Positions 28,954-49,910 are shown, numbered from the stretch's first letter. The stretch is DNA of 64,000 bases from an uncultured Gemmatimonadales bacterium (GCA_963701965.1 OY969695.1:96001-160000); one strand, 5' to 3'. Numbers and translations are program-made. The notes: generated by a model from the sequence alone, not told the origin.

Positions 28954-30219
28954 TCAGGCGAGCGAGGCGACGAGCACGGCGTTGGTTCCGCCGAAGGCGA
29001 ACGAGTTCGACATCGCGTGGCGCAGGTCGGCGCGTGCCGCGCGCGGCGCCGATGACGAGATCGATCGCGAACGCCGGATCGGCGGCGCCCGTGTGGGCAG
29101 TCGGCGGCAGTCGGCCCGACGCCAGGGCGCGCAACGCCGCCAACAGCTCGATCGCGCCGCCGGCGCCGAGCAGGTGGCCGTGGATCGCCTTGGTCGAGCT
29201 GACCGGCACGCCGTGGGCGCCGAACACGGCGGCGATCGATTCGGCTTCGGCGGCATCGCCGGGAATCGTCGCCGTGCCGTGGGCATTGAGGTAGCCGACG
29301 GCGTCGGCTTCGAGCCCGGCGTCGGCGAGCGCGGCGCGCATCGCCCGCGCCTGACCGGCGCGCGTCGGGATTGGTGATGTGGACGCCATCGCAGTTGGTC
29401 GCGTAGCCGGTCAGTGCGAGCTGCGGCCGCACGCCGCGCGCGCGCGCATGCTCGGCCGACTCGAGAACGAACGCCGCCGCCGCTTCGCCGAGCGCGAAGC
29501 CGGCGCGGTCGGCGGCGAACGGCCGGCACGATGCCGCGACCGCCGCGGCGTCGCCGGCCGACGTGCCGAGCGGCACCAGCACGCGCATCGCCTGCCAGCT
29601 CGCGAGCACGCCCGGCGTCAGCATCGACTCGCTGCCGCCGGCGATGGCGACGTCGATCCAGCCGGCGCGGATGGCACGCATCGCCTCGCCGATCGCGACC
29701 GCCGACGAGGCGCAGGCGCAGGCATAGCCGAGCGCGGCGCCGCGGGCGCCGAAGAGGAGGGCGATCTCGGCCAGCGGCGCGTTCGGCATCGTCGTCACGA
29801 CGCTGGTGGGCCGCATCCGGCGGCGATCGGCATAGACCGTGCGGCAGGTGGCCTCGAAGGTCGCCGCGCCGGCCATGCCGCTGCCCCAGAAGATGCCGAG
29901 CCGGTCGCGATCGAAGTCGCCGGGGGCGAGACGCGCGGCCGCCGCGGCAGAGCGCGCTGCGGCGAGGGCCATCGCCGTCGGCGCGATCGAGCGGCACCCG
30001 CGACGGCGCGACCTCGGCGGCGGCATCGAAGTCAGCCGGCGCCACCGGCACCGGCGGCAGCTCGATGCCCGGCAGGTCGAGCGCCTGCGCGCGCACCGCC
30101 GAGCGGCCGGCGAAGAGCGCCGCATCGAACGCCGCGAGCGTGTTGCCGAGCGGGCTGATGACGCCGGCGCCCGAGACGACGACCGGCGCGCCGGCCCGGG
30201 CGCTAGGCGGCCGCGGCAT
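28954..30219 (-). CDS. Beta-ketoacyl-ACP synthase, FabF/NodE-like (frameshifted)
   Basis: ACASS (catalytic Cys), NAHGTAT, GHLLGA (Cys-His-His), SWQAMRVL..CRPFAADRAGFALGE, SNSFAFGGTNA. Confidence 0.9.
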   Translation of the reverse strand: MPRPPSARAGAPVVVSGAGVISPLGNTLAAFDAALFAGRSAVRAQALDLPGIELPPVPVAPADFDAAAEVAPSRVPLDRADGDGPRRSALCRGGRASRPRRLRSRPARHLLGQRHGRRGDLRGHLPHGLCRSPPDAAHQRRDDDAERAAGRDRPPLRRPRRRARLCLRLRLVGGRDRRGDACHPRRLDRRRHRRRQRVDADAGRARELAGDARAGAARHVGRRRRGGRGIVPAVRRRPRRLRARRSGGGVRSRVGRACARARRAAAARTDRLRDQLRWRPHHQSRRAPVRRGRCAPRSPTPGSKPTPSATSMPTARRRFPAMPPKPNRSPPCSAPTACRSARPRRSTATCSAPAARSSCWRRCAPWRRADCRRLPTRAPPIRRSRSISSSAPRAARADLRHAMSNSFAFGGTNAVLVASLA

Positions 30220-30478
30220 CGCGCGACGGCTTCGCCGCGACCGCCTCGTCGAGCAGCAGCGCCAGATGCTCGAGCGTGACGCCGGCCTGGCGCGGGTCGA
30301 GCCGGTCCTCGGGGATGCGCACGTCGAAGCGATCCTCGACCGCGAACACGAACTCCATCAGCGCGAGCGAATCGAGGCCGAGCTGGTCGAGCGTGGCCTG
30401 CGGCCGGACCGCATCCGCGTCGACGTGGAACTGCTCGACCAGCACGGAGGTGAGGGTGGCGAAGGTCGACGATGTCAT
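30203..30478 (-). CDS. Acyl carrier protein
   Basis: LGLDSLALMEFVFAVEDRF phosphopantetheine motif. Confidence 0.92.
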   Translation of the reverse strand: MTSSTFATLTSVLVEQFHVDADAVRPQATLDQLGLDSLALMEFVFAVEDRFDVRIPEDRLDPRQAGVTLEHLALLLDEAVAAKPSRDAAAA

Positions 30479-36689: not shown

Positions 36690-38031
36690 GTGCAGCCCGC
36701 TACAACCCGCGCCGACTCTGTCATCGCCGACGCCGCACGCGAGTGCGACGTGCTCGTCGTCGGCGGCGGCCCGGCCGGCTCGACCATCGCCACGCTGCTG
36801 GCCGAGCGCGGCAAGGATGTCGTCCTGCTCGAGAAGGCGCACCACCCGCGCTTTCACATCGGCGAGTCGCTCCTGCCGGCCAATGCCGCGCTGTTCGACC
36901 GGCTCGGCCTGCGCGAGCAGGTCGAGGCGATCGGGATGCAGAAGTACGGGGTCGAGTTCGTCTCGCCCGATCACGACAGGCGCCAGTTCATCGAGTTCGC
37001 CGAGGCCTGGGACAAATCGATGCCCTACGCCTGGCAGGTGCGGCGCTCGCAGCTCGACGAGCTGCTCTTTCGCCACGCCGGCTGCTCGCGGCGCGCGCAT
37101 CTTCGAAGGCCAGCGCGTGCGCGAGATCGCGTTCGACGACGACGGCGCGACGGCACAGGCAGAGCTCGACGACGGCACCCGGCGCAGCTGGCGCGCCCGC
37201 TTCGTCGTCGACGCGTCGGGCCGGGACACGCTGCTCGCCAACCAGCTGCGCTGCAAGGAGAAGAACCCGCGCCACAACAGCTCGGCGCTCTACGGCCACT
37301 TCACCGGCGCCGAGCGCCTGCCCGGCAAGCTCGAGGGCAACATCACCATCTTCTGGTTCGAGCACGGCTGGTTCTGGTTCATCCCGCTGGTCGACGGCTC
37401 GACCAGCATCGGCGCGGTCTGCTGGCCGTACTACCTGAAGTCGCGCACCAAGCCCTTGCCCGAGTTCTTCCGCGACACGATCGCGCTCTGTCCTGACCTC
37501 GAGGCGCGCCTGGCCGGCGCGACGCTGATCGACGAGCGCGTCTACGCCACCGGCAACTACTCGTACACGAGCGCGAAGAGCAGCGGCGATCGCTACCTGA
37601 TGATCGGTGACGCCTACGCCTTCGTCGATCCGGTGTTCTCGTCGGGCGTCTACCTGGCGATGCAGAGCGCGTTCGACGGCGCCGAGGTCGTCGCCGCCGT
37701 GCTCGAGCGGCGTCGCGATGCGAAGGCGCTCCGGCGCGCGTTCGACCGCAGCATCCAGCATGGCCCGCGCGAGTTCTCGTGGTTCATCTTCCGCGTCACC
37801 AATCCGACGATGCGCGAGTTCTTCATGGCGCCGCAGAACCCGTTCCGGGTCAAGGAAGCGCTGATCTCGCTGCTCGCCGGCGACATCTACGGGCGGACAC
37901 CGATCTGGCGTTCGATCTTGATCCTGAAGACGCTCTATTACCTGGTCTCGATCGGCAATCTCGGCCGCACGGTGCGCGCCTGGCGGCGCCGGCGAGTCAA
38001 CATCCGCGACGTCGAGGTCCAGGCATCGTGA
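36690..38031 (+). CDS. FAD-dependent oxidoreductase, flavin-dependent halogenase-like (frameshift near 37085)
   Basis: GGGPAG FAD motif, HPRFHIGESLLP, VDASGR, WFWFIP (WxWxIP), GDAYAFVDPVFSSGV. Confidence 0.85.
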
Positions 38032-38943
38032 GGCGCCTCGCCGGCCGGCGGCGGGGCCTGGTCCTGTCGCTCGCTCTGCTCGGCGCGCTGACGTTCGCCA
38101 CGCGCGCGCGCGCCGACGAGCTGCCGACGCCCGGGCCGGTGGTCGAGGGACCGGTGACGCCGGCCGCGCCGGACGCCGTCGGCACCGAGCCGCTCTGGGA
38201 GCTCGGCGTCGGCGTCGGCGGCATTCCGCTTCGACGACTATCGCGGCTCGGACCACACCAACACCTATGTCTTGCCGCTGCCGTTCTTCGCCTACCGCGG
38301 CCCGATCCTGCGCGCCGACCGCGACGGCGCGCGCGCCGTGCTGTTCGAAGGGCGCCGGTTCACCGTCGACGTCAGTCTGGGCGCATCGGTCCCGACCAAG
38401 AGCAAGGACGACGAGGCGCGTCACGGCATGCCCGACCTGGCCGGCACCTTCGAGATCGGTCCCAACCTCGTCGCCGAGCTCTGGCAGTCGAGCGATCGCA
38501 AGCTGAAGCTCGAGCTGCGCATGCCGGTGCGCGAGGCGATCACGCTCGAGCGCTCGCCACAGGCGATCGGGCTCACGTTCTCGCCCAACCTGAACCTCGA
38601 CATCAGCGGCCTGCCCGGCAAAGGGAACCTGGGGCTGCTCGCCGGCCCGCTGTTCGCCGACCACCGGTACCACCAGTACTTCTACAGCGTCTCGCCGGAG
38701 TTCGCGACCGCAACGCGGCCGGCCTATGACGCGCCGGGCGGCTACGCGGGCTGGCGCGCCACGGCCGCCTTCTCGCGCCGCTTCGGCAATGCCTGGCTGG
38801 GCGCATTCGTCCGCTACGACGACCTGCATGGCGCGACGTTTGCCCCGAGTCCTCTCGTGCGCAAGGAAACCACCGTTACGGCGGGCTTCGGCATCTCATG
38901 GATCTTCGCGACTTCGAGTCAGCGCGTGCGGACCGACGACTGA
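38028..38943 (+). CDS. MipA/OmpV family outer membrane protein (frameshift near 38230)
   Basis: Signal peptide; PLWELGVG, DYRGS, GMPDLAGTFEIGP, YFYSV, SPLV..GFGISWIF. Confidence 0.82.
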
Positions 38944-39686
38944 GCGACGACGCCGAGCTGGCGCCGTCGCTCCGTCATCGCCTCCTGTTCGCGGCGGTCA
39001 TCGTCCAGCTGGGCGCGATGTCGCTCGTCTGGGCCCTGCTCGCGCCGCTGCTGGCGCTGCTGCTGCCGCGTCAGGCCGCCGGGCGCCTCGGCCGCTCGGC
39101 GGTGTCGTTTCTCTACCGCTGCTGCTGGGCCAGCGCGGAGCGGCTCGGCCTGATGAGCGTCGACTCGAGCGCGCTCGACGCGCTGCGCGACGAGCCGGGC
39201 GGTCTGATCGTCGCCGCCAACCATCCGACCATGCTCGATGCCTTGCTCGTGGTGGCGCGGCTGCCGCGCGGCGTCTGCGTCATGAAGGCCGAGCTGATGC
39301 ACAACATCTTCCTCGGCGGCGGTGCGCGCCTGGCGCAGTACATCAGGAACGACGTCGGCCGCGGCATGGTGCGCGATGCCGTGACGACCCTGCGCGAAGG
39401 CAACCAGCTGATCCTCTTTCCCGAGGGCACGCGCACCGTCGGCGCGACGGTCAACGCCTTCAAGCCCGGCATCACGCTGATCGCCCAGCTGGCGCAGGTG
39501 CCGATCCAGACGGTGGTGGTCGAGTCGTTCTCGCCCTACCTCACCAAGGGCTGGCCGCTGCTCAAGGCGCCGCCGGTGCCGGTCCGGATCCGGCTCACGC
39601 TCGGCCCGCGCTTCGCGCCCGATGCCGACCACCGCGCCCAGCTGCGCCGTCTCGAGATCTACTTCGCCGAGGCGCTGCGCCGGTGA
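38940..39686 (+). CDS. Lysophospholipid acyltransferase family protein (start uncertain)
   Basis: ANHPTMLD (HX4D) and FPEGTR motifs. Confidence 0.9.
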   Translation: MSDDAELAPSLRHRLLFAAVIVQLGAMSLVWALLAPLLALLLPRQAAGRLGRSAVSFLYRCCWASAERLGLMSVDSSALDALRDEPGGLIVAANHPTMLDALLVVARLPRGVCVMKAELMHNIFLGGGARLAQYIRNDVGRGMVRDAVTTLREGNQLILFPEGTRTVGATVNAFKPGITLIAQLAQVPIQTVVVESFSPYLTKGWPLLKAPPVPVRIRLTLGPRFAPDADHRAQLRRLEIYFAEALRR

Positions 39687-40477
39687 GCGCCGCCGCGGGC
39701 GTGGCCGCGTCGACCAGCCACGTGGTCGTCATCCCGAGCTACGACAGCGGCGCGCTGGTCTACGCGACGGTGCGCGCGGCGCGCGCCGTCTGGGCGCCCG
39801 TGTGGGTGGTCGTCGACGGCAGCGGCGACGGCACCGCCGCCGGACTGCGCGAGCTGGCTGCCGGCGACCCGCAGCTGCGGGTCGAGGTGCTCGCGCGCAA
39901 CCGGGGCAAGGGCGCGGCGGTCCTGCATGCGCTCGAGCTGGCGCAGGCGGCCGGCTTCACGCATGCGCTGACGATGGACGCCGACGGCCAGCATCCGGCC
40001 GATCTGATCCCGACCTTCATGGCGGCGTCGGCGCGAAACGCCGAGGCGATGATCCTCGGCCGACCGGTGTTCGACGCCTCGGCGCCGCTGCTGCGCGTGC
40101 GCGGCCGGCAGATCTCGAACGGCCTGGCCCGGCTCGAGACGCTCGGTGCCGGCATCGACGATGCGCTCTACGGCTTTCGCGTCTATCCGATCGCGCCGCT
40201 GGTCGCGGTGATGCGCGGCCAGGCCTGGATGCGCCGCTTCGACTTCGACCCCGAGGCGGTGGTTCGCCTCGCCTGGCGCGGCGTGGCGCCGATCAACATC
40301 GCCGCGCCGGTCAAGTACCTGCGCGCCGAAGACGGCGGCGTCTCCCACTTCCGCTACGGACGCGACAACGTGCTGCTCACCTGGATGAACCTGCGCCTGC
40401 TGCTCGGCTTCGTCGTGCGCTTGCCGATGCTGCTGCTGCGCCGGGCGCGGCGCCGACCGCCGTTCGGCCGCGCCTGA
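39683..40477 (+). CDS. Glycosyltransferase family 2
   Basis: VVIPSY, VVDGSGD, NRGKG, MDADGQH, GFRVYP, VSHFRY. Confidence 0.9.
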   Translation: MSAAAGVAASTSHVVVIPSYDSGALVYATVRAARAVWAPVWVVVDGSGDGTAAGLRELAAGDPQLRVEVLARNRGKGAAVLHALELAQAAGFTHALTMDADGQHPADLIPTFMAASARNAEAMILGRPVFDASAPLLRVRGRQISNGLARLETLGAGIDDALYGFRVYPIAPLVAVMRGQAWMRRFDFDPEAVVRLAWRGVAPINIAAPVKYLRAEDGGVSHFRYGRDNVLLTWMNLRLLLGFVVRLPMLLLRRARRRPPFGRA

Positions 40478-40496
40478 CAGCGCGGCGCCGTGCCGC

Positions 40497-41236
40497 TCAG
40501 ATCATCGCGCCGTTGATCGACACGATCTGGCCGCTGATGTAGGCGGCCTCGTCGGAGGCGAGGAAGGCGACCAGCGCCGCGACCTCGTCGGCGGTGCCGG
40601 CGCGCTTCATCGGCACGAGCTTGTCGATCGTCGCGCGGTCGAACACGCTGCCGCCATGCCGGCGTCGATGATTCCCGGCGCGACCGCGTTGACGGTGATG
40701 CCGCGGCTCGCCAGCTCGAGCGCGAGCGCCTTGGTCGCGCTGTTGAGCGCGCCCTTGGCGGCGGCGTAGTTGACCTGGCCGCGGTTGCCGGTGAGCGCCG
40801 CGATCGACGAGACGTTGACGATCCGGCCCCAGCGGGTGCGGATCATCGCCATCACCAGCGGCTGGGTGACGTTGAAGAAGCCGCCGACCGAGACGTCGAT
40901 GACGCGCTGCCACTGCTCGCGCCGCATCGCCGGAAAGACCGCGTCGTCGTGGACGCCGGCGTTGTTGACGATCACCTGGACCGCGCCGCCGGCGAGCATG
41001 CGCGCGCACGCCGCGTCGGTGCTCGCGCCATCGGTGACGTCGAAGGCGATCGCCTCGCCGCTGCCGCCGGCGGCGACGATGCGCTCGACCACGGCCGCGG
41101 CCGATTCGATCCGGCCGTTGGCATGGGCGATCACGTGCAGGCCGGCGCGGCCGAGGCGCTCGGCGATCGCCGCGCCGATGCCGCCGCTCGCGCCGGTGAC
41201 GAGGGCGCGCCGGCGCGCGTTCGGGGCGTCGTTCAT
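40497..41236 (-). CDS. 3-oxoacyl-ACP reductase (FabG-like, pigment-cluster type; frameshift near 40655)
   Basis: TGASGGIG, NNAG, GNRGQVNYAAAK, VNAVAPGII. Confidence 0.92.
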
Positions 41237-41705
41237 GGCGCGCGCGCCAGGACGCGTGTCGAGCACGACCGCGACCCGGCCCGAGGCGAGCTCGCGGCCG
41301 CCGTGATGGAGGCGAAAGGTGCAGAGCAGCCGCGTCGCGTCGGCAGCCTGGCGCTCGCTCGTCACGACCAGCTCGTCAGGCGTCGTCCGGCGGCAGGTCG
41401 TCGAGGCGCCAGCGCGCGAGGCGGACGTCGCGCGCGCTGGCGAGAAAGCCCGGCGCCGCGCTCGCTCCGGCAGCGTCGGCGCAGAGCGCGCCGTGCACCG
41501 CCATCGCCTGCGCCGCGTACTCGATCGCCGTGCTCGCCAGCAGGCCGCTCGCGCTGCGCAGCGGGTGGCGCGGGTCGCGGTGGTTGACGGCGACGCACTC
41601 GATCCGCGTCGCGTCCCAGGCGACGACCCGATCGAGCAGGCACATCGGCCCCTGATGCGGGATCAACGCGGCGATCGCGGCGTGGTCAAGCGTCGCCGGC
41701 GCCAT
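41233..41705 (-). CDS. Hotdog-fold 3-hydroxyacyl-ACP dehydratase partner (ApeP-like; frameshifted)
   Basis: LIPHQGPMCLLDRV, IEYAAQAMAVHG, GFLASARDV. Confidence 0.85.
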
Positions 41706-42456
41706 CGGGGGCTCGCGGTTCAGGACCCGGCGCGCGCACGACGGTGCCGACGAGGAGGACGTTCGCGAACGGCGTGCCGCGGTGCATCGGCTCGCTCGCG
41801 ACCGCGAAGCCGAGCTCGTCCAGGCGCGCCATCCAGGCCGCGAGCGTGCGAGTGGCGGCGTGATCGACGCGCTGGCCGCGCGCGAAGCTGACGATGCGAT
41901 CGACCCAGCGGGTCGCCGTGGAGCGGTGCCGCGAGGCGGCATCGCCGACGCGCAGGACCAGCCGGCCGCCGTCGGGCAGCGCGGCGCGGACCCGCGCCAG
42001 CACGGCGTCCTGCTCGACGATGCTGACGTAGTGCAGGACATCGAGGATGACCACCGTGTCGACCGCGGCGAAGGCGGTGGTTCGCATGTCGGCGCAGACG
42101 AAGTCGGCGCTGTCGCCGAGGGCGTCGCGGGCGCGCGCGACGTCGCGCGCGCGCAGGTCGATGCCGCTGACGTGGGCGTCGACCGGCGCCTCGGCCCAGG
42201 CGCTCGGCCACCGGCCCTGGCGCGCCGCCTGGCCGGCGGCGCGAACCAGGCTGGCGAGCAGCCCCTGGCCGCAGCCGATGTCGAGCACGCGCGTTCGCGG
42301 CGCGATCAATCCGTGGGCGAGCAGATGGCCGAAGACCGGATCCCAGCGCAGCTTGCCGCGTGCGAAGTGCCAGGCGAAGCGGCCGGCGCGCTGGTAGGGC
42401 GCGCTCGCCGTCTCGACCAGCGAGCGCCAGGCGAGCGCCGGCGTGGCCGTGCTCAT
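41686..42456 (-). CDS. Class I SAM-dependent methyltransferase
   Basis: FARGKLRWDPVF, VLDIGCGQG, ILDVLHY, TPFANVLL. Confidence 0.88.
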   Translation of the reverse strand: MSTATPALAWRSLVETASAPYQRAGRFAWHFARGKLRWDPVFGHLLAHGLIAPRTRVLDIGCGQGLLASLVRAAGQAARQGRWPSAWAEAPVDAHVSGIDLRARDVARARDALGDSADFVCADMRTTAFAAVDTVVILDVLHYVSIVEQDAVLARVRAALPDGGRLVLRVGDAASRHRSTATRWVDRIVSFARGQRVDHAATRTLAAWMARLDELGFAVASEPMHRGTPFANVLLVGTVVRAPGPEPRAPDGAGDA

Positions 42457-43325
42457 GCCGCTGCCGCGATCGTGTCCGCTGCGGCCAGCAAGGTCACCGG
42501 ACGAAGGCGCGCTGCCCGCACCCGCTCGAGCAGCGCCGGCAGGACGACGAGCGCGAGGGCACGGCCCTCGGCGTCGCGCGCGGCATGGCCGTCGTGGAGC
42601 AGCAGGATGTCGCCGCCGCCGAGGCGCCGGACGAGGCGCGCCAGGACCGCGCCGGCGTCGCTGCCGACGGTGTCGAAGCCGCGCCGGGTCCAGCTGACGA
42701 GCTGCAGGTCGAGGCGTTGCAGCACCGGCGCCAGGAACGGGTTGCGCAACCCGGCCGGAGCGCGAAAGAAACGCGGCGCGGTTCCCGTGATCTCGGCCAG
42801 GCTCGCCTGCGCCGCCGCGACCTCGCGCGCCATCGCCCGCGGTCCGAGCAGCGAGAAGCGATGCGAGTGGCGATCGCTGTGGTTCTGGACGCTGTGCCCG
42901 CGCGCGACGATCGCGCGGCAGAGCGCGGGATGCGCGCGTGCCCGCTCGGCGATGCAGAAGAACGTCGCCTGCACGCCGTGCCGGTCGAGCAGGTCGAGGA
43001 CCGCAGGAGTCACCTCGGGATCGGGGCCGTCGTCGATCGTGATCGCGATCTCGCCGCGTGCGGCCGCCGCCCGCCGGCAAGCTGCGTCCAGTTGCTGCCG
43101 AGCCAGCGCGAGCGCGGCCAGAGGCCGCCGGCGGTGAGGACAAGATGATTGGCGGCGACCGCACCCAGTGCCCACGGCCAGCTCGAGGGCACGAGCGCGG
43201 CGCCGGCGCCCGCCGCCAGGTGCCAGGCGAGGCTCGCCTTGGCATAGGCCGGCCACGCCGTCGCAGCCGCAGCCGGGCGGCGTGCCGGAGGCCGGGAGCA
43301 GGCCCTCGCCGGGAGTTGTCGTCAC
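42453..43325 (-). CDS. Polysaccharide deacetylase (CE4/NodB) with N-terminal membrane segment (frameshifted)
   Basis: ITIDDGP, NHSDRH, FFRAPAG, DILLLHD. Confidence 0.88.
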   Translation of the reverse strand: MTTTPGEGLLPASGTPPGCGCDGVAGLCQGEPRLAPGGGRRRRARALELAVGTGCGRRQSSCPHRRRPLAALALARQQLDAACRRAAAARGEIAITIDDGPDPEVTPAVLDLLDRHGVQATFFCIAERARAHPALCRAIVARGHSVQNHSDRHSHRFSLLGPRAMAREVAAAQASLAEITGTAPRFFRAPAGLRNPFLAPVLQRLDLQLVSWTRRGFDTVGSDAGAVLARLVRRLGGGDILLLHDGHAARDAEGRALALVVLPALLERVRAARLRPVTLLAAADTIAAAA

Positions 43326-45748
43326 GCGGCGATTTTCCCATGCGTCCCGGTGGCCTGATCGCGCTCGCGCCGGCCGAGCCATGCCGCCGAAAAGACGCAG
43401 GCAGAGCAACGCTCCCGGCGCGACCACGATGCCGACCGCCTGAAGCACCGGAATGGGCGACGTGGCGAGCAGCGCGAACGACGCGACCGTCGTCAGATTG
43501 GCGAGCAGCAGCGAAGCGAGCGTGTCTTCGTCGACCGCTCGCTGCGTGCGCAGGTGATCGAAGAAGAGGGCGTAGTTCGAGCCGATCGCGACCGTCAGCA
43601 GCAGGCCGACCAGGTGCAGGATGCCGAGGGCGACGCCGGTCAGCGCCAGCGCCGCGAGCACGAGCAGCGTCGCCGCGGCGATCGGCAGCGCGACGGCGAC
43701 GAGGCGCGAGAAGCGCCTCAGCCGCAGCGCGAGCAAGCCGAGGACCGCGAGCGCGCCGAGCGCCGCCTGCCACTCGGCGGCGCCGAGGAAGCGCGCGTAG
43801 ATCGCATCGAGCTCGGCCTTGATGGCGACGACGCGGGCACCTGGAACGTCGGCGACCGCGTGGCGGATGGCTTCGGCGTCGAGCGGCCGGCCGCTCGCCC
43901 GGCTGCAGGTTGATGAGCGCGCGCCAGGGCCGGGTCGCGTCGCCCGTGACGCGCAGGGCATCGACGGCGACGCCGAGCGCGCTGCCGTCGAGGTCGCGGC
44001 GTTCGATCGGCGGCTCGCTTCGCGCGGCTGCGACATCGGCGATGAAGGGTGCTAGCCGCGCCGCGGGCAGCGGTCCGTCGACGGTCGCCTCGGCGAGCCG
44101 GCCGCGCAGGCTCTCGGCTGTCGGGCAGCGCGTCGCGCCGTCGCATCTGCGTCGCGATGCTCGGCAGGAGCCGCGCCGGCGAGTCGTAGCCTTGCAGGGC
44201 GCCGGCTGGCGACGAGCGTGTCGAGGCGTGTGCCGACGGCCTCGGCGGCCGCCAGCGCGCCTTGCTCGCTCGCCGCCGAGACGGCGACCAGCGTTCCCGC
44301 GTCGGCGGCGCCGAGGTCGGCACGCAGGGCCGCGTCGAGCGCGAGATCGGCGGCCGGAACCGGGCTGAGCGACGCCAGCTCGCCGCGCCAGGGCGAGGGC
44401 ACGACGGCGAGCGCGCCGACCGCCAGCGCTGCGAGCAGGACCACGGCGACCCGAGCGCGCGGCAGCAGCGCCGCGGCCGCGGCCATGAAGCGGCCGAGCT
44501 GGCGGCGAAAGCCGGCGCCCGGCGCGCCGTTCGGCGCGATCACCGGGAAGACGAAGCGCGTCGTCGCCGCCGCAGCGGCGAGGCCGGCGATCGAGAACAC
44601 GCCGAGCTGCGCCAGCCCGGGAAAGCCGGTGAAGAGGAGCGCGGCGAAGCCGATCAGCGAGGTGAAGAGGCCGAGCCGAACGGTCGGCCAGCTCTCGCGG
44701 CGCCAGCGCTCGCTCGAATCCCGGGCCGCCGCGCGCCTGGACCAGGAAGTAGATCGCGTAGTCGACCGCCTCGCCGATCAGCGTCGTGCCGAAGCCGAGC
44801 GTCATGCCGTGCACCTGGTCGAACGCCAGGCTGACCGCGGCGATGCCGGCGACGACCCCGGTCGCGACCGGCACCAGCGCGACCAGCAGTGCGCGCAGCG
44901 ACGCGAAGGCGAGCAGCAACAGAACGACGATGACCACCGAGCCGAGGAGGGCGAGCCGCTCGACCTCGGCCTTGATGCGCTCGCGCGATTCGACGGCGAA
45001 GCGGCCCGCGCCCGAGACCCGCAGGCGCAGGCCGGGCGAAGCGACCGCATCGAATGTCGAGCGGATCGCCGCCAGGGCGCGCTGCTGGCCGTCGAGGTCG
45101 GCGCCGTCGGCGCGGGTCGTCGCGAGCAGCAGCGCGCGCGGCGTCGTTCGCGCGACCCAGACGCCGTTCTCGATCTTCGGCGCGCGCGCCGGCGTCAGCG
45201 CCTCGGCGATGCGCACCGTCTCGCCGGTCGGGTCGCGAAAGAGGATCGGCTTGAGCAGCGAGCCTGCCGGCGTGCCGAGCAGCGCCACGGTCTCGTCGAT
45301 CGCAGCGCGCAGGCCGGTGACGCTGAAGCGCGCCGCGTCGACCGCCGGGCTCAGCAGATAACGGTGCTCGAACACGAAGTTGCCGGCGTCGGCCCAGGCG
45401 GCGCGCTCGCCGTTCTCGACCGAGGCGAACAGCCCGCTGGCGCGCAGCGCGGCGGCAAGCCGGCGCGATGTGTCGGCGCGCGCGGGAGCGGCGCCGCATC
45501 GCGTCGCCGTTCACGTCGGCGTTTGCCGGCGCGCCATCGATCGCGATCAGGATCAGGCGCGCGGTCGCGCCGTTCTTCAGCTGATCGAGCAGCACGGCCT
45601 GCTCGGGAGTAGGCGCGGCGGGGAGAAAGGCGGAGAGATCGGCGACGTAGTGGGCGCGCCAGGCGATCGCCAGACCGGCGACGAGCGCGCCGAGCCAGAG
45701 CGCCAGCGTCAGCGCGGCGCGCCGGCCGATCGGGGACGGCGCGGCCAT
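43322..45748 (-). CDS. MMPL/RND-like exporter of aryl-polyene/xanthomonadin-type clusters (several frameshifts)
   Basis: YVADLSAFLP, GMTLGFGTTLIGEAVDY, LLTVAIGSNYALFF, ANLTTVASF. Confidence 0.85.
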
Positions 45749-45752
45749 CGGC

Positions 45753-46390
45753 TCAGGGCGTGCCGGTGACCGGACTCGATCGTCATCACCGAGCGATCGC
45801 CGTCGGCGAGCAGGACCTGGACCTCGCGCACCGTCGCCTCGCGCCCGGAGAGTCGCAGCGACTGGACCTGGCCGCGCAGACGCAGGTCGCGCGGCACGAG
45901 CTCGAGCGTCCAGCGCTCGGGCGTGCCCGAGACCGTCGCCTCGAACAGGCGCTCGAGCGTGCCGCGGTTGCCGGTGAGCGTGCCGCGCACCGCCTCGACG
46001 ATCACCGACGCTTCGGGCGACGCGTCGAGCTGCATCGTCCGGCTGCGCTCGCCGAGCGTCATCGTCATGCGTGTTGCCGTCGACGGCGAGCTTCTCGTGG
46101 CGCGGCTTCAGCGTCTCGCGGATGAACGTGGTCGGGGGCGCGAAACGACAGTCGCCCCGACGACATCAGCGTCCGGTCGAGCATCTCGACGCGGCGTGTT
46201 TCGGTGAAGGTGGCCTCGCCGGATCGCGCCTGGCCGAGCAGCGCCATCAGCGCGCCGAGATCGAGCCCGGGCGCGGCAGCGGTCGCGCCGGCGAGCGCCA
46301 GCGTCGCGCCGGCGATCAGCCAGGCGCGGCGCAGGGCGCCGCGGCGCCGCTCAGGCCGGCCCTGGCAGGAGCTCGCGGGCGCTTCGGCAT
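45753..46390 (-). CDS. LolA-like lipid/lipoprotein carrier (cluster-specific; frameshifted, ends approximate)
   Basis: ATFTETR..LMSSGRLSFRAPD, WTLELVP, DGDRSVMTI. Confidence 0.78.
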
Positions 46391-47326
46391 CGGCCCAGAA
46401 GTCGTAGAAGTTGAACCAGTTGTAGGGCGCCTCGCGGCACAGGCCTTCGAGCGTCGCGACGTAGCGCTCGAGCGCGGCCCGGATCGCGAGGTCGCGCGCC
46501 GCCGGCGGCGGACGCTTGCGTCTCGGCCGCGACGCCGAAGTCGGCGATCTCGATGAAGCGCAGGTCGTAGTCACGGCCGCCGCGATAGAGGCCGGCCATG
46601 AACACGACCTTCTGGCGCAGCATCGCCGCGAGCCGGAACGGGCCGTCGGAGAAGACCGCCGGCGCGCCGAGGAACGGCAGCGCGACCGACTTCGAGCGCT
46701 GCGAGTTGCCCGGCAGGGTGCGATCGGCGAGCAGGCCGGCGATGCCGCCGTCGTCGAGCCAGCGCCGGATCGCGAGCATGGCGTCGACGCGTCCGAGGCC
46801 GATCGTGTGCAGCTTGGCGCGCGGCGCCAGCGCCGCCAGCGTCTCGTTGATCAGGCGCGCGTTGTCTTCGTACATGATCATCGCCACCGCCAGGCCGCGC
46901 TCGTGGCCGATCATGCGCAGCGCCTCGAAGCTGCCGAGGTGGGCGCCGAAGGCGAGCACGCCGCGGCCCTCGGCCAGGCGCCGGTGCATCGCCTCGACGC
47001 CGCTGGCCGTGAAGGTGAACTCGTCGAAGCGCTCCTGCAGCAGGTAGACGCGATCGAGCACCATCGCGGCGAAGGTGAAGAGGTGGGTGTAGACGTCGCC
47101 CCAGGTCGCGGCTGCGGCCGAGCGCGCGCGAGAGATAGCGCGCCGAGTGATGCCGGGTCGACCGGTCGAGGCAGAAGAAGCAGACGATCGGATGAAGCAT
47201 CAGCCGCGCCGCGCGCCGCCCGGCGGTGACCGCGATCCAGCGCATGAGGCGCAGCTGCCACAGGCTGCTGCGCTCGCGCTGGCGCGCCCACGCGGTCGGC
47301 GGCGCGGTGCCGCTGCCGGCCTTCAC
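46351..47326 (-). CDS. LpxL/LpxP-like acyltransferase (frameshifted)
   Basis: WARQRERS, AHLGSFE, GLLADR, PYNWFNFYDFW. Confidence 0.85.
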
Positions 47327-47656
47327 GATGCGCTCCTCGGTGACGTCGGCGCGTGCGATCTCGCCGCTCGCGACAACGCGACCGGCCTCGTCGACGCGCC
47401 AGGCGAGCGAGCGAGCGCCGACGACGAACTCGAGCGCGAGCGTCGCGCCCGGACGGACGGCGCCGCTGAACTTGACCACCGACAGGCGTGGCGCATCGCC
47501 GAGCGACGCGCACAGAACCGGCTCGACACGCGCCGCTTCGAGCACTTCGGCGAGAAGGGCGACGCCGGGCAGGATCGGCTGCCCGGGGAAATGGCCGGCG
47601 AATGCCGGATGGTCGGGCGCGACCACGAACGTTCGCCGGAACGCCGCACCGTTCAT
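47323..47656 (-). CDS. FabZ-like dehydratase (ApeI-like)
   Basis: DHPAFAGHFPGQPILPGVALL, VKFSGAVRPG. Confidence 0.85.
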
Positions 47657-49012
47657 CGCCGGATCGCGCCGCTCTGCTGCGCCAGCTCGGCAAGGCGCGC
47701 CGCCGTCAGCTTGCCGGTGGTCTCGCGCGGCAGGGCCGGCGACGCGGACGATCCGGCGCGGCAGGAACGCGGCGTCGACGCGCTCGCGCAGCGCGGCGCC
47801 GATCTGCTCGTTCGACAGGCCCGGCGCGACGACGAAAGCCACCAGGCGGACGATGCCGAGCGCGTCGCCGCTCGTCTCGGGCGGCATCCAGAACGCGCCG
47901 TCGACGACGCCGTCGATCGAGTTGAGCTGGAAGTCGAGATGGCCGATCGAGCTGCGCTTGCCGGCGATGTTGATCAGGTCGTGGGTCCGGCCGAGCAGGC
48001 GGAAGGTATCGCCGCCGGTGACCTCGAGCACGTCGGCGAGCAGCGTCGGCTGCGGCACGTGGCCGCCGCTCACCGTGACCGCGTCGCCGTCGCCGGCGAG
48101 GCGGACGCCGTCGAGGGTCTGCCACTCGGCCCGGCAGTGGTTCGCCGCGACGCCACCTGGCCGGCCTCGGTGCAGCCGTAGATCTCGAGCAGCGGCGCGC
48201 CGAGGCGCGCCTCGGCCTCGGCCGCGAGCTGCGGCGCAAGCGGCGCGGTCGCGCACAGCACCAGCGTCAGCGGCGGCAGCGCCAGCTTCGCGTCGAGCAC
48301 CGTCCTGAGGTGAAACGGCGTCGTCACCAGCATGCGCGGCGCCGGCACGCGGCGCAGCGCCGCGGCGATGTCGGCGGGGAAGAACGGCCGGCTGGCGTCG
48401 AGGACGGCGCCGCCGTGAAGGGCGAGCAGCACGCTCGACTCGAAGCCGTACATGTGCTGCGGCGGCACGGTCGCGACCAGCGAGATGCCGGCCACGTCGG
48501 CGCGGCCCAGCGCCTCGGCCAGGCGACGCGCTTCGCTGCGGGCGTTGCTGGATCAGGAGGCCCCAGGGCTTGGCATGCGGCACCGGATCGCCGGTCGAGC
48601 CCGAGGTCAGCACATAGGCGGCGACGAAGTCGGGATCGATCTCGGGGATGGTGTCGATGCCGGCAACCTCGCCGTCGCGGTCGGCGTGCGTCACCGTCGT
48701 CAGGCCGTGACCGTCGTCGCCGTCCTCGACCAGCGCATAGACGCCGGCAAAGCGCGCGCGCAGGCGCGTCACCGTGTCGGCAACGTGGTTCGGCGGCAGC
48801 AGGCTGGTGTGGCCGCGCAGCAGCGCCGCGGCGAATCCGACCGCGAAGCGGTAGCGGTCGCTCGAGAGATTGAGCATCGCGCCGCTGGCGGGCAGCCGCT
48901 CGGCGAGCGCAACGGCGTCGGCAAGGAAGCGCCGGCGCGAGATCGCCCGTCCGGCACGGGTCGCGAACGCGGCGTCGAGGTCGCCCTCGGCGATGAGCGC
49001 GCTTTCAGTCAT
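47653..49012 (-). CDS. AMP-ligase / acyl-ACP synthetase (XanA2/ApeH-like starter-unit ligase; frameshifted)
   Basis: LTSGSTGDP, TVPPQHMYGFESS, EIYGCTEAG, INIAGKRSS. Confidence 0.87.
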
Positions 49013-49634
49013 GGGGCACGCCGCGGTCGGCATAGGCGCGCAACGCCTGGCTCAGCGTCGCCCGCTCGAACTCCGGGTGCAGTCGATAGCGCAGCAGGTA
49101 TTCGCCGACGAAGAGGGCGAGCATCGCCAGCGGCGTCGCCAGGTTCGCGAACGCCGCCCAGGTGGCGAAAGGCGCGAGCGCATAGAGGGCGAGCGACAGC
49201 GCGCCCATGGCGACGAAGTAGACCGTCCAGACGACGGTGACCTTGCGCGAATAGGCCGCCATCGCCGGCGTCAGCCCGCCGTGGACGCGGCGCGCCAGCG
49301 CGGTGATGAGCGACTCGCGGCCGCCGACCAGCGTCAGGCCGAACACGAACGCCAGCAGGACATGGATCGCGACGTGCTGGGCGACGAAGACCGTGCCCGG
49401 CGCAAGGCCGCCGCCTTGCCAAGCTTGCCACGCCAGCGCTGCCACCGCGAGGGCGGCCAGCGTCGCGAGCGGTCGCTGGCCGCGTTGCCAGGCGAGGAAG
49501 GCGGCCAGCGCCAGCATCGGCCCGACGATCGCGAGCGCGCTCCACGACGAGGTCGGCGCCCGCGTCATCAGCCAGTGCGAGGCGAGCACGTAGGCGATGC
49601 CTGCCGCTCCCGCTGCGAGGAGGCGGATGCGCAT
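49005..49634 (-). CDS. Membrane protein typical of aryl-polyene clusters
   Basis: Multi-TM; FGLTL..SLITALARRVH, YSRKVTVVW, GEYLLRYRLHP. Confidence 0.8.
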   Translation of the reverse strand: MRIRLLAAGAAGIAYVLASHWLMTRAPTSSWSALAIVGPMLALAAFLAWQRGQRPLATLAALAVAALAWQAWQGGGLAPGTVFVAQHVAIHVLLAFVFGLTLVGGRESLITALARRVHGGLTPAMAAYSRKVTVVWTVYFVAMGALSLALYALAPFATWAAFANLATPLAMLALFVGEYLLRYRLHPEFERATLSQALRAYADRGVPHD

Positions 49635-49640
49635 GGGCAG

Positions 49641-49910
49641 CTACCCCTGTCGGTTCGCGGCGATGTGGTCGGTCAGGCTCGCCAGCGACTTGAAGATGCG
49701 CACGTTGTCTTGGTCGTCCGAGCGAAGCTGGAAGCCGTAGCGCTGCGAGACGACGAGCGCGACCTCGAGGATGTCGATCGAGTCGAGGCCGAGGCCTTCG
49801 CCGTAGAGCGGCGCGTCGGGGTCGATCGATTCGGGAGCGATGTCGAGGTTGAGGGCCTCGACCAGGAGCGCGGCGATCTCGCTCTGCAGGGCGGTGTGGA
49901 CGGAGGTCAT
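49641..49910 (-). CDS. Acyl carrier protein (XanC/ApeE-like)
   Basis: PLYGEGLGLDSIDILE, IFKSLASL. Confidence 0.92.
   Translation of the reverse strand: MTSVHTALQSEIAALLVEALNLDIAPESIDPDAPLYGEGLGLDSIDILEVALVVSQRYGFQLRSDDQDNVRIFKSLASLTDHIAANRQG

Follow-up and report, generated by a model that had tools for sequence, protein, structure and literature searches.

The gene cluster at positions 36690..49910 of the window (the whole 64,000-nucleotide stretch that was analysed) very probably comes from a Caldimonas/Rhizobacter-like betaproteobacterium and forms the main part of a split cluster of the xanthomonadin/arcuflavin type. Its ketosynthase and chain-length factor (KS-CLF) likely lie in a satellite locus outside a chimeric assembly, and it likely makes an ordinary aryl-polyene lipid with an elongated chain. 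A cluster of this kind without its own KS is an ordinary case: an unlinked KS-CLF satellite, with or without a halogenase-like gene, was present in 17/17 searchable genomes that carry the same KS-less junction.

Gene content of the cluster

Pfam searches and tblastn mapping to relatives agreed with the first-pass annotation, in gene content and in order, on two convergent operons. The genes are listed below in the order of each operon, the minus strand first.

49641..49910 (-), acyl carrier protein (ACP; ArcV/XanC-like), PF00550; 60% to the L047 ACP
49005..49634 (-), membrane protein (ArcU-like), 34% to L047 and 74% to L283
47656..49012 (-), aryl-acid AMP ligase (ArcT/XanA2-like), frameshifted in the assembly, 3' end approximate; 3-4 tblastn pieces, 70-80% to L283; PF00501 matched by the L047 orthologue
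47339..47659 (-), ApeI/FabA-like dehydratase (ArcS-like), ends approximate; PF07977 weak (the L047 orthologue matches PF07977 and PF22818)
46351..47329 (-), LpxL-like acyltransferase (ArcR-like), PF03279; frameshifted, ends approximate; 67-85% to L283/L037 in 3 tblastn pieces
45745..46300 (-), LolA-like carrier (ArcQ-like), PF19574; frameshifted, ends approximate
43322..45748 (-), MMPL exporter (ArcP-like), PF03176; frameshifted, 3' end approximate; 5-6 pieces against orthologues, which are intact in relatives
42453..43325 (-), polysaccharide deacetylase (ArcN-like), PF01522; frameshifted
41686..42456 (-), SAM methyltransferase (ArcM-like), intact, 256 aa; PF13649 and related families; homologues up to 94% identical
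41686..41705 (-), overlap of methyltransferase and hotdog genes, the position of KS-CLF in related clusters
41233..41705 (-), hotdog dehydratase (ArcI/XCC4004-like by position), frameshifted, 3' end approximate; 51% to L047, 70-76% to L283/L037
40497..41236 (-), FabG-like ketoreductase (ArcH/XanH-like), PF00106 and PF13561; frameshift near 40648
36690..38031 (+), flavin-dependent halogenase-like enzyme (ArcA/XCC4013 type), PF04820; frameshift near 37075; GxGxxG and WxWxIP motifs; 58-66% to L047, 81-85% to L037
38227..38943, matched part (+), MipA outer-membrane protein (ArcC-like), PF06629, E 1e-33; N-terminus in a different frame from the matched part
38898..39686 (+), PlsC-like acyltransferase (ArcD-like), PF01553
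39683..40477 (+), GT2 glycosyltransferase (ArcE-like), PF00535

The ligase, a dedicated ACP, the ketoreductase and two dehydratases were all present, and the lipid attachment and export set (LpxL-like and PlsC-like acyltransferases, GT2, LolA-like protein and MMPL) was complete. Because the L047 orthologue of the hotdog dehydratase had no Pfam match, this label was assigned from synteny and homology together with PMC3949708 Table 1.

The reported lack of a KS was borne out, as none of the tblastn queries (one in-cluster KS, two satellite KS, three CLF, XanB2) matched 36690-49910 at E ≤ 0.05; the XanB2 chorismatase likewise had no match in the ~328 kb available. The reported overlap at the methyltransferase-hotdog junction is also real (stop at 41688-41686, hotdog ATG at 41705, 20 nt shared), and the C-terminal tail that it produces is shared by homologues P0001-P0003 (86-94% identical). 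The same KS-less junction occurred at 12/44 genome loci and 24/80 metagenome loci; with loci L081-L115 excluded (35 weak methyltransferase matches, E 5e-8 or worse), the hotdog gene stood directly at the junction in 36/124 related loci and a KS in 62/124.

Comparison with known systems

The closest layout in print is that of Variovorax paradoxus S110, for which a split cluster is tabulated as vapar_2669-2682 plus vapar_0260-0264 (PMC3949708 Table S2). S110 has the same order from ACP to methyltransferase, followed by a dehydratase and a reductase with no KS/CLF between and then by GT2 and acyltransferase genes, and its KS-CLF-FAD monooxygenase lies at a separate locus that matches Xanthomonas XCC3998/3999/4001 at 62/53/55% (PMC3949708 Tables S2, S4). 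Unlike S110, the window has MipA and an ArcA-type halogenase in place and lacks XanB2; S110 also has a DAR locus, the proxy marker for which was found in 0/5 genomes of the window's lineage, in a search that had no positive control. A plasmid search also turned up a Variovorax replicon KS at 70%, known from annotation.

For each gene of the cluster, annotation and order point to an Arc counterpart in the arcuflavin loci of Azoarcus sp. BH72 (arcA-L plus arcM-X), both of which are essential for pigment (PMC3949708). There too the split falls between methyltransferase and KS, but in Azoarcus the dehydratase and reductase genes remain together with KS-CLF, ArcB (XanB2) is encoded, and the product is an ester with a dialkylresorcinol. 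The Xanthomonas campestris pig locus (XCC3998-4015) and the Lysobacter enzymogenes OH11 yellow locus share with the window the ACP, ligase, ketoreductase, dehydratases, exporter, LolA-like protein and acyltransferases; in the BLAST table of PMC3949708, similarity links the satellite to XCC3998/3999/4001 and the ArcA-type halogenase to XCC4013. Both are single contiguous loci with KS-CLF and XanB2, whereas the window has neither, and no methyltransferase, deacetylase or MipA is listed for the Xanthomonas locus (PMC3949708 Table S4). The ape clusters of E. coli and Xenorhabdus (ApeA-R; PMC8253772) share the type II PKS-like aryl-polyene principle, with a KS-CLF heterodimer and genes that attach the product to a lipid and export it, but have two ACPs and three KS-fold proteins, whereas the cluster at 36690..49910 has a single ACP, no KS and neither tandem ACPs nor ApeO/ApeC/ApeR; the ape CLF is of a different subtype and matches PF13723 over its full length (E < 1e-45), in contrast to the partial matches of the window's cluster family.

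The window lies on a chimeric contig

The window's assembly (G000) is a single contig with scores of 95% completeness and 4% contamination, yet it combines DNA from two phyla. Approximately 328 kb of Caldimonas/Rhizobacter-like Burkholderiales DNA was joined mid-gene to ~4.8 Mb of Gemmatimonadaceae DNA at about C1:328,370, where the ClpC reading frame continues into a headless DppB-type permease. The contig holds two valS copies that are 39.6% identical to each other, and the ileS at 607 kb matches Gemmatimonadaceae. Window DNA was collinear with G151 and G152 at 81-92%, versus short pieces only (66-74%) in the nominal congeners of G000. An assembly gap as the reason for the missing satellite neighbourhood was considered and rejected, since most of G152 does not map to G000 (3/20 control tiles above 50% cover, all near the window); leuS and purB in G000 came from another lineage, which led to the chimera reading.

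Only ~7% of a 4.3-4.6 Mb genome is therefore represented, and the absence from G000 of a CLF and of an NF006618-type KS is uninformative because the contig is chimeric and holds ~328 kb of the organism. A search of the nominal family of G000 (CLF in 1/151 genomes, methyltransferase matches weak only) was aimed at the wrong taxon, that of the Gemmatimonad part, and nothing stated here draws on it or on two unpublished genomes it included, G007 and G034. The other KS-family genes of G000 (3.57, 3.95 and 5.03 Mb) lie within that part, and LpxL/KS/FAD matches near 3.93-3.95 Mb were rejected as an aryl-polyene cluster. Given that G000 is a cross-phylum chimera, no finding in the first 328 kb can safely be backed by 'absent from genome' arguments.

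An unlinked KS-CLF satellite in relatives

CLF (PF13723) was found in 12/12 genomes whose cluster has the methyltransferase-hotdog junction, always directly after a KS, and 9/12 carried a second halogenase-like gene after the satellite CLF. In an evenly drawn second sample of 251 family genomes, CLF was present in 40/41 genomes with the methyltransferase (the one exception had no ligase, and no other cluster gene nearby) and the satellite in 7/7 with a KS-less junction. The two sets share two genomes, which gives the 17 distinct genomes; as these fall into just 2-3 lineages, they are not 17 independent tests. In the backbone tree, G151 and G411 were closest to the window's organism, and both have the satellite. 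Four sequencing runs aligned to a relative's satellite yielded only short pieces ~85% alike, unassignable to the satellite.

The single satellite KS scanned passed NF006618 (499 vs. a cut-off of 407), the ACSSS motif was kept in 8/8 satellite KS checked, and all four satellite CLFs whose motif was captured had Ser and Gln at a distance of 46 residues, as between S120 and Q166 in Lysobacter (PMC3691225). In a quick tree the satellite KS formed a clade (clade B, SH-aLRT 98) that is paralogous to the in-cluster KS rather than a relocated copy of it. In L048, L055, L188 and G233, the same KS-CLF-halogenase module is found within the main cluster or next to it.

Several genomes (G168, G170, G178, G186, G233, G348 and G420) carry both KS-CLF pairs, so clade B may have a job of its own. 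Second CLF copies, untyped, were also seen in G249, G306, G414, G418 and G378. That the satellite makes another product while the main cluster borrows housekeeping FAS enzymes would fit a distinct paralogue standing beside clade A in at least seven genomes; it is nevertheless highly unlikely, since nothing in the satellites matched the cluster references for ACP, reductase or dehydratase, the satellite is nearly always together with the main cluster, and a dedicated KS is essential for pigment in Lysobacter and Azoarcus (in Lysobacter the CLF too). The satellite rarely occurs without the main cluster: among 14 genomes with a CLF and no methyltransferase, 13 had a complete cluster that included its own KS. 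One possible case of a satellite lacking a cluster is G376, where it lies on a 1.7-kb contig and no ligase was found.

The orphan KS and the suggested non-elongated product

Elongation in trans, as first proposed, stands in outline, in that relatives use an unlinked xanthomonadin-type KS-CLF (17/17); the orphan KS at 28954, its suggested supplier, is probably not the enzyme, because it is of FabF type and only 4/8 KS-less genomes have a close orthologue (58% or more). The orphan ACP-KS pair (window 30478-28954) does lie 6 kb from the cluster, has a KS with Cys-His-His and is kept at the same site in G151 and G152; a close orthologue of the KS occurred in 11 genomes, 7/11 of them with the cluster, and related KS (44-45% identical to it) lie inside the cluster in L043, L044, L054, L145, L147 and L151. 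Against a role in elongation, the intact G151 orthologue scored 226 on NF006618 (cut-off 407), there is no CLF partner, orthologues also occurred in four genomes with neither methyltransferase nor CLF, and the relatives in L043, L044, L145, L147 and L151 stand beside a normal in-cluster KS-CLF. This pair is a very improbable supplier. The window's own copy was omitted from the KS tree (frameshifted pieces too short), and the G151 orthologue was classified by HMM.

The earlier suggestion of a non-elongated lipid found no support, because no searched genome with a KS-less junction lacks a KS-CLF pair. An organism truly without KS-CLF, whose cluster transfers to a lipid a halogenated aroyl group that is not elongated, would agree with the lack of KS/CLF in the cluster and the available 328 kb, with the absence of XanB2 from the lineage and with the several benzoates that ArcT takes in vitro (PMC3949708). 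We consider it most unlikely, as the satellite is present in both closest relatives, FabG and both dehydratases, which act only post-condensation, are under purifying selection, and the assembly holds so little of the genome. The further possibility that the lineage lost both KS-CLF and XanB2, and that the ligase, ACP, methyltransferase, halogenase and acyltransferases left to it attach an unextended aroyl group, scavenged and halogenated, to a lipid of the outer membrane, is equally unlikely, though ~93% of the organism's genome lies outside the assembly; if true, an aryl-polyene scaffold would here yield a new class of product.

Starter supply is a residual oddity, in that the window's lineage lacks the XanB2 chorismatase (0/3 close relatives, control G153 positive), the enzyme that supplies 3-hydroxybenzoate for xanthomonadin. 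UbiC was found in 0/5 genomes searched. PF14399, a BtrH proxy for the DAR locus used with no known DAR-positive control, was also found in 0/5.

Frameshifts, selection and the junction

Many window genes are frameshifted, which would fit a decaying cluster; neither these frameshifts nor the lack of XanB2 had been noted in the first-pass annotation. The frameshifts look like sequencing errors: the flanking housekeeping genes ftsK and rarA are likewise frameshifted, orthologues are single intact pieces in short-read relatives, the sequencing runs carry an extra base at 40645-40651 that restores the FabG frame, and the assembly differs from the runs at the deacetylase indels (~43068-43276). The cluster genes are under purifying selection (dN/dS 0.12-0.49 for each gene tested), and the junction is common to several genera, so that decay after loss of KS/CLF is extremely unlikely.

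KS/CLF are truly missing from the cluster, and the junction is no collapse. Loss by misassembly at 41.7 kb, a concern in an assembly rich in errors and misjoined elsewhere, has next to no probability, since short-read contigs from 3/4 runs bridge the junction with 0-1 gap (X1, 41412-42108; X2, 41542-42618; X3, 41274-41858; no listed piece of X4 spans it) and 36 further loci show the same junction.

Proposed route and implications

The split-cluster reading would place a KS/CLF pair elsewhere in the genome, named in the first-pass annotation as grounds against its own proposal, and such a pair was found in relatives. We infer that the satellite is also present in the window's own organism and that its KS-CLF elongates on the main-cluster ACP. 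Following the Azoarcus, Lysobacter and Xanthomonas papers, hydroxybenzoate would be loaded on the ACP by the AMP-ligase and extended with malonyl units by the satellite KS-CLF, FabG and the two dehydratases would form the conjugated polyene, and the methyltransferase and halogenase-like enzymes would tailor the ring. The acyltransferases, GT2, MMPL, LolA-like protein and MipA would then serve lipid attachment and outer-membrane delivery. The predicted polyene would probably act as a photo-oxidative or antioxidant pigment.

The finding carries little weight as a discovery, the split layout being already in print for V. paradoxus S110, and no test of a Variovorax satellite mutant was found in the literature examined. 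In at least two Burkholderiales lineages, the in-cluster pair seems to have given way to a paralogous KS-CLF-halogenase module of Xanthomonas-like type; no statement of such a replacement was found in the literature searched, with most subscription papers outside reach. Such a replacement predicts that split clusters may differ from intact ones in chain length or in halogenation.

Gene content and integrity of the cluster

Gene content was determined by ORF calling and Pfam searches, followed by tblastn with intact references from Noviherbaspirillum (L047) and Parazoarcus (L063). The two convergent operons described in the first-pass annotation were confirmed, with the methyltransferase gene (42456-41686) overlapping the hotdog gene (ATG at 41705) by 20 nt. 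The reported lack of a ketosynthase (KS) was likewise borne out, as tblastn queries for KS, chain-length factor (CLF), and XanB2, the chorismatase for the hydroxybenzoate starter, returned no match in 36690-49910 at E ≤ 0.05.

Many window genes carry frameshifts, including the flanking ftsK and rarA. Given that the cluster orthologues are single intact pieces in the short-read relatives L037 and L283, and that the extra base at the FabG break is present in public runs, these frameshifts are best read as long-read errors, in a pattern typical of an unpolished long-read assembly. Single-base indels are dense across 25994-49910, where most genes are broken (ftsK, rarA, the KS, and cluster genes), and some of the listed indels conflict with short-read contigs. 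The suggestion that the cluster is decaying is countered by dN/dS values of 0.12-0.49 across all computable cluster genes and pairs.

The KS-less junction

The methyltransferase gene directly adjoins the hotdog dehydratase gene at the site where related clusters carry KS-CLF. Collapsed assembly at this position, an earlier concern, was dismissed after contigs bridged the junction at ~95% identity in three of four independent metagenome runs (soil or unlabelled). The KS-less junction is real and common. Among true methyltransferase homologues (35 weak matches were excluded beforehand), the next gene in 44 genome loci was KS in 27, hotdog in 12, and another gene in 3, with the locus ending in 2; the corresponding counts for 80 metagenome loci were 35, 24, 4, and 17. 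Cultured Variovorax strains are among the carriers of the KS-less junction (L049, L053, L065, and L075). In a FastTree phylogeny of four concatenated proteins, the KS-less loci fell into a clade of Variovorax type, a clade resembling Caldimonas/Rhizobacter that includes the window, and an additional branch, requiring three parsimony changes, so the loss of the in-cluster KS is ancient and has probably occurred repeatedly. A rearranged cluster variant was seen in L043, L284, L045, and L290, where a second ACP directly precedes the deacetylase-methyltransferase pair, accompanied in L043 and L284 by a divergent partial KS.

Unlinked KS-CLF modules in related genomes

PF13723, the Pfam family matching CLF, was matched in 28/28 genomes picked from methyltransferase loci, including all 12 with a KS-less junction. 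In each of these 12, CLF directly follows KS at an unlinked site (hereafter the satellite), and in nine a second halogenase-like gene comes after CLF (~545 aa, ~25% identical to the cluster halogenase). Across 251 genomes drawn evenly from the host family, CLF was present in 71 (54 of the partial-match xanthomonadin type and 17 of the full-length type) and the methyltransferase in 41, 40 of which also had CLF. The sole exception, G259, has no ligase and no other cluster genes within 12 kb. Every sampled genome with a KS-less junction (7/7) carried the satellite, as did G214, whose operon ends at the methyltransferase. Thirteen of the 14 CLF-positive, methyltransferase-negative genomes had a complete cluster that includes its own KS; the remaining one (G376) had a satellite-type pair alone, on a 1.7-kb contig.

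In a quick IQ-TREE analysis, satellite KS formed clade B (SH-aLRT 98) and in-cluster KS clade A (90); clade B also took in the second KS copies that L048, L055, and L188 carry within their clusters. This separate placement argues that the satellite is a paralogue standing in for the in-cluster pair, not a relocated gene. The satellite KS of G151 passes the KS family model NF006618, and ACSSS is kept in 8/8 satellite KS checked. The Ser-to-Gln spacing of Lysobacter S120/Q166 is kept in four satellite CLFs caught by motif search, a match made by spacing only; Q166 is reported to be essential in Lysobacter (PMC3691225).

The clade B module of KS, CLF, and halogenase-like gene was located at L196-L208, L271-L281, and L296, but two Variovorax satellites (L203 and L207) lack the halogenase-like gene. 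An esterase-like gene precedes the module in L048, L055, L188, L208, L274, and L296. In some intact clusters (L157, L159, L167, L169, and L179), this halogenase-like gene follows the FabG or hotdog gene.

In V. paradoxus S110, methyltransferase vapar_2676 adjoins dehydratase vapar_2677 and reductase vapar_2678. KS, CLF, and FAD monooxygenase are encoded separately, by vapar_0262-0260, next to genes for a muropeptide transporter and an M48 peptidase (PMC3949708 Table S2). The Variovorax satellites examined here have neighbours matching those of vapar_0262-0260, whereas in G151 and G152 the satellite lies close to pepP and an MFS gene. Since the S110 satellite is nearer to Xanthomonas XCC3998/3999/4001 (62/53/55%) than are Azoarcus ArcK/ArcJ/ArcA (53/46/26%; PMC3949708 Table S4), clade B is likely the xanthomonadin-type module. 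The Azoarcus pigment is reported to need two unlinked loci (PMC3949708).

The orphan ACP-KS pair

Elongation in trans, as raised in the first-pass annotation, is supported by the satellites of the KS-less genomes, but not with the supplier proposed there, which was the KS of the following pair:

28954-30478, minus strand: stand-alone ACP and FabF-like KS, between lolA and rarA

This orphan KS has its own ACP at 30478-30203, contains Cys-His-His, and is kept at the same site in G151 and G152. An intact orthologue is FabF-like, scoring 226 against the NF006618 cut-off of 407, and its nearest solved structures are FabF. Close orthologues occur in 11/251 genomes: 4 of the 8 KS-less genomes, 3 whose cluster contains KS, and 4 that have no cluster marker. 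The KS-less state therefore neither depends on the orphan KS nor is the only setting in which it occurs. Related KS (44-53% identical) are inserted in the aryl-polyene clusters of L043, L044, L054, L145, L147, and L151, with a small ACP alongside in L043, and on account of these distant relatives a putative accessory role is possible, such as acyl chain supply for a lipid anchor. The pair presumably resembles NodE/NodF.

Chimeric assembly

The PF13723 search of the window's own assembly (G000) gave no match, and the usual satellite neighbours were also missing from it, because G000 consists of two organisms. Over many kb, the window runs collinear with G151 and G152 (81-92%), but its matches to the nominal congeners of G000 (G062 and G120) are confined to short pieces at 66-74%; a locus at 3.57 Mb has the opposite pattern. 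Two valS genes are present (39.6% identical), the distal copy being 78% identical to that of G120. Named relatives are Gemmatimonadaceae for ileS at 607 kb and Caldimonas and Rhizobacter for the window methyltransferase. Tetranucleotide composition changes near 330 kb, and Fur was not found in G000. At ~C1:328,370 (L299, on the window's contig), a ClpC AAA domain continues in frame into a DppB-type permease without its first residues, which is a mid-gene join. We favour a misjoin here, which is far more probable than a natural transfer in which 328 kb including valS, ftsK, and tRNAs arrived and broke a gene at the join. Given that only ~328 kb of a host genome of probably 4.3-4.6 Mb is present, the genome-wide absence of CLF from G000 is uninformative.

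The join lies outside the window and connects ~328 kb of Burkholderiales DNA, whole window included, to ~4.8 Mb of Gemmatimonadaceae DNA; this cross-phylum chimera scores 95% complete and 4% contaminated. A small operon of the Gemmatimonad part, at C1:3949394-3953520 (FAD-dependent oxidoreductase, methyltransferase-like gene, short ORF, and KS), is not an aryl-polyene cluster.

Starter unit and predicted product

XanB2 is absent from the window cluster and, genome-wide, from 3/3 close relatives (G151, G152, and G411; positive control G153). In many relatives its place is between the halogenase and MipA or acyltransferase genes, a site at 38031-38227 in the window. UbiC was not found in 5/5 genomes, and the DAR locus was not detected in a test without a positive control. 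ArcT is reported to activate 3-hydroxybenzoate and other benzoates (PMC3949708). The window lineage may scavenge its hydroxybenzoate starter or use a different enzyme to make it; a polyene product and halogenation are predicted. The window cluster is a real, conserved split architecture that has already been described, and it looks stranger here owing to the chimeric, unpolished assembly.
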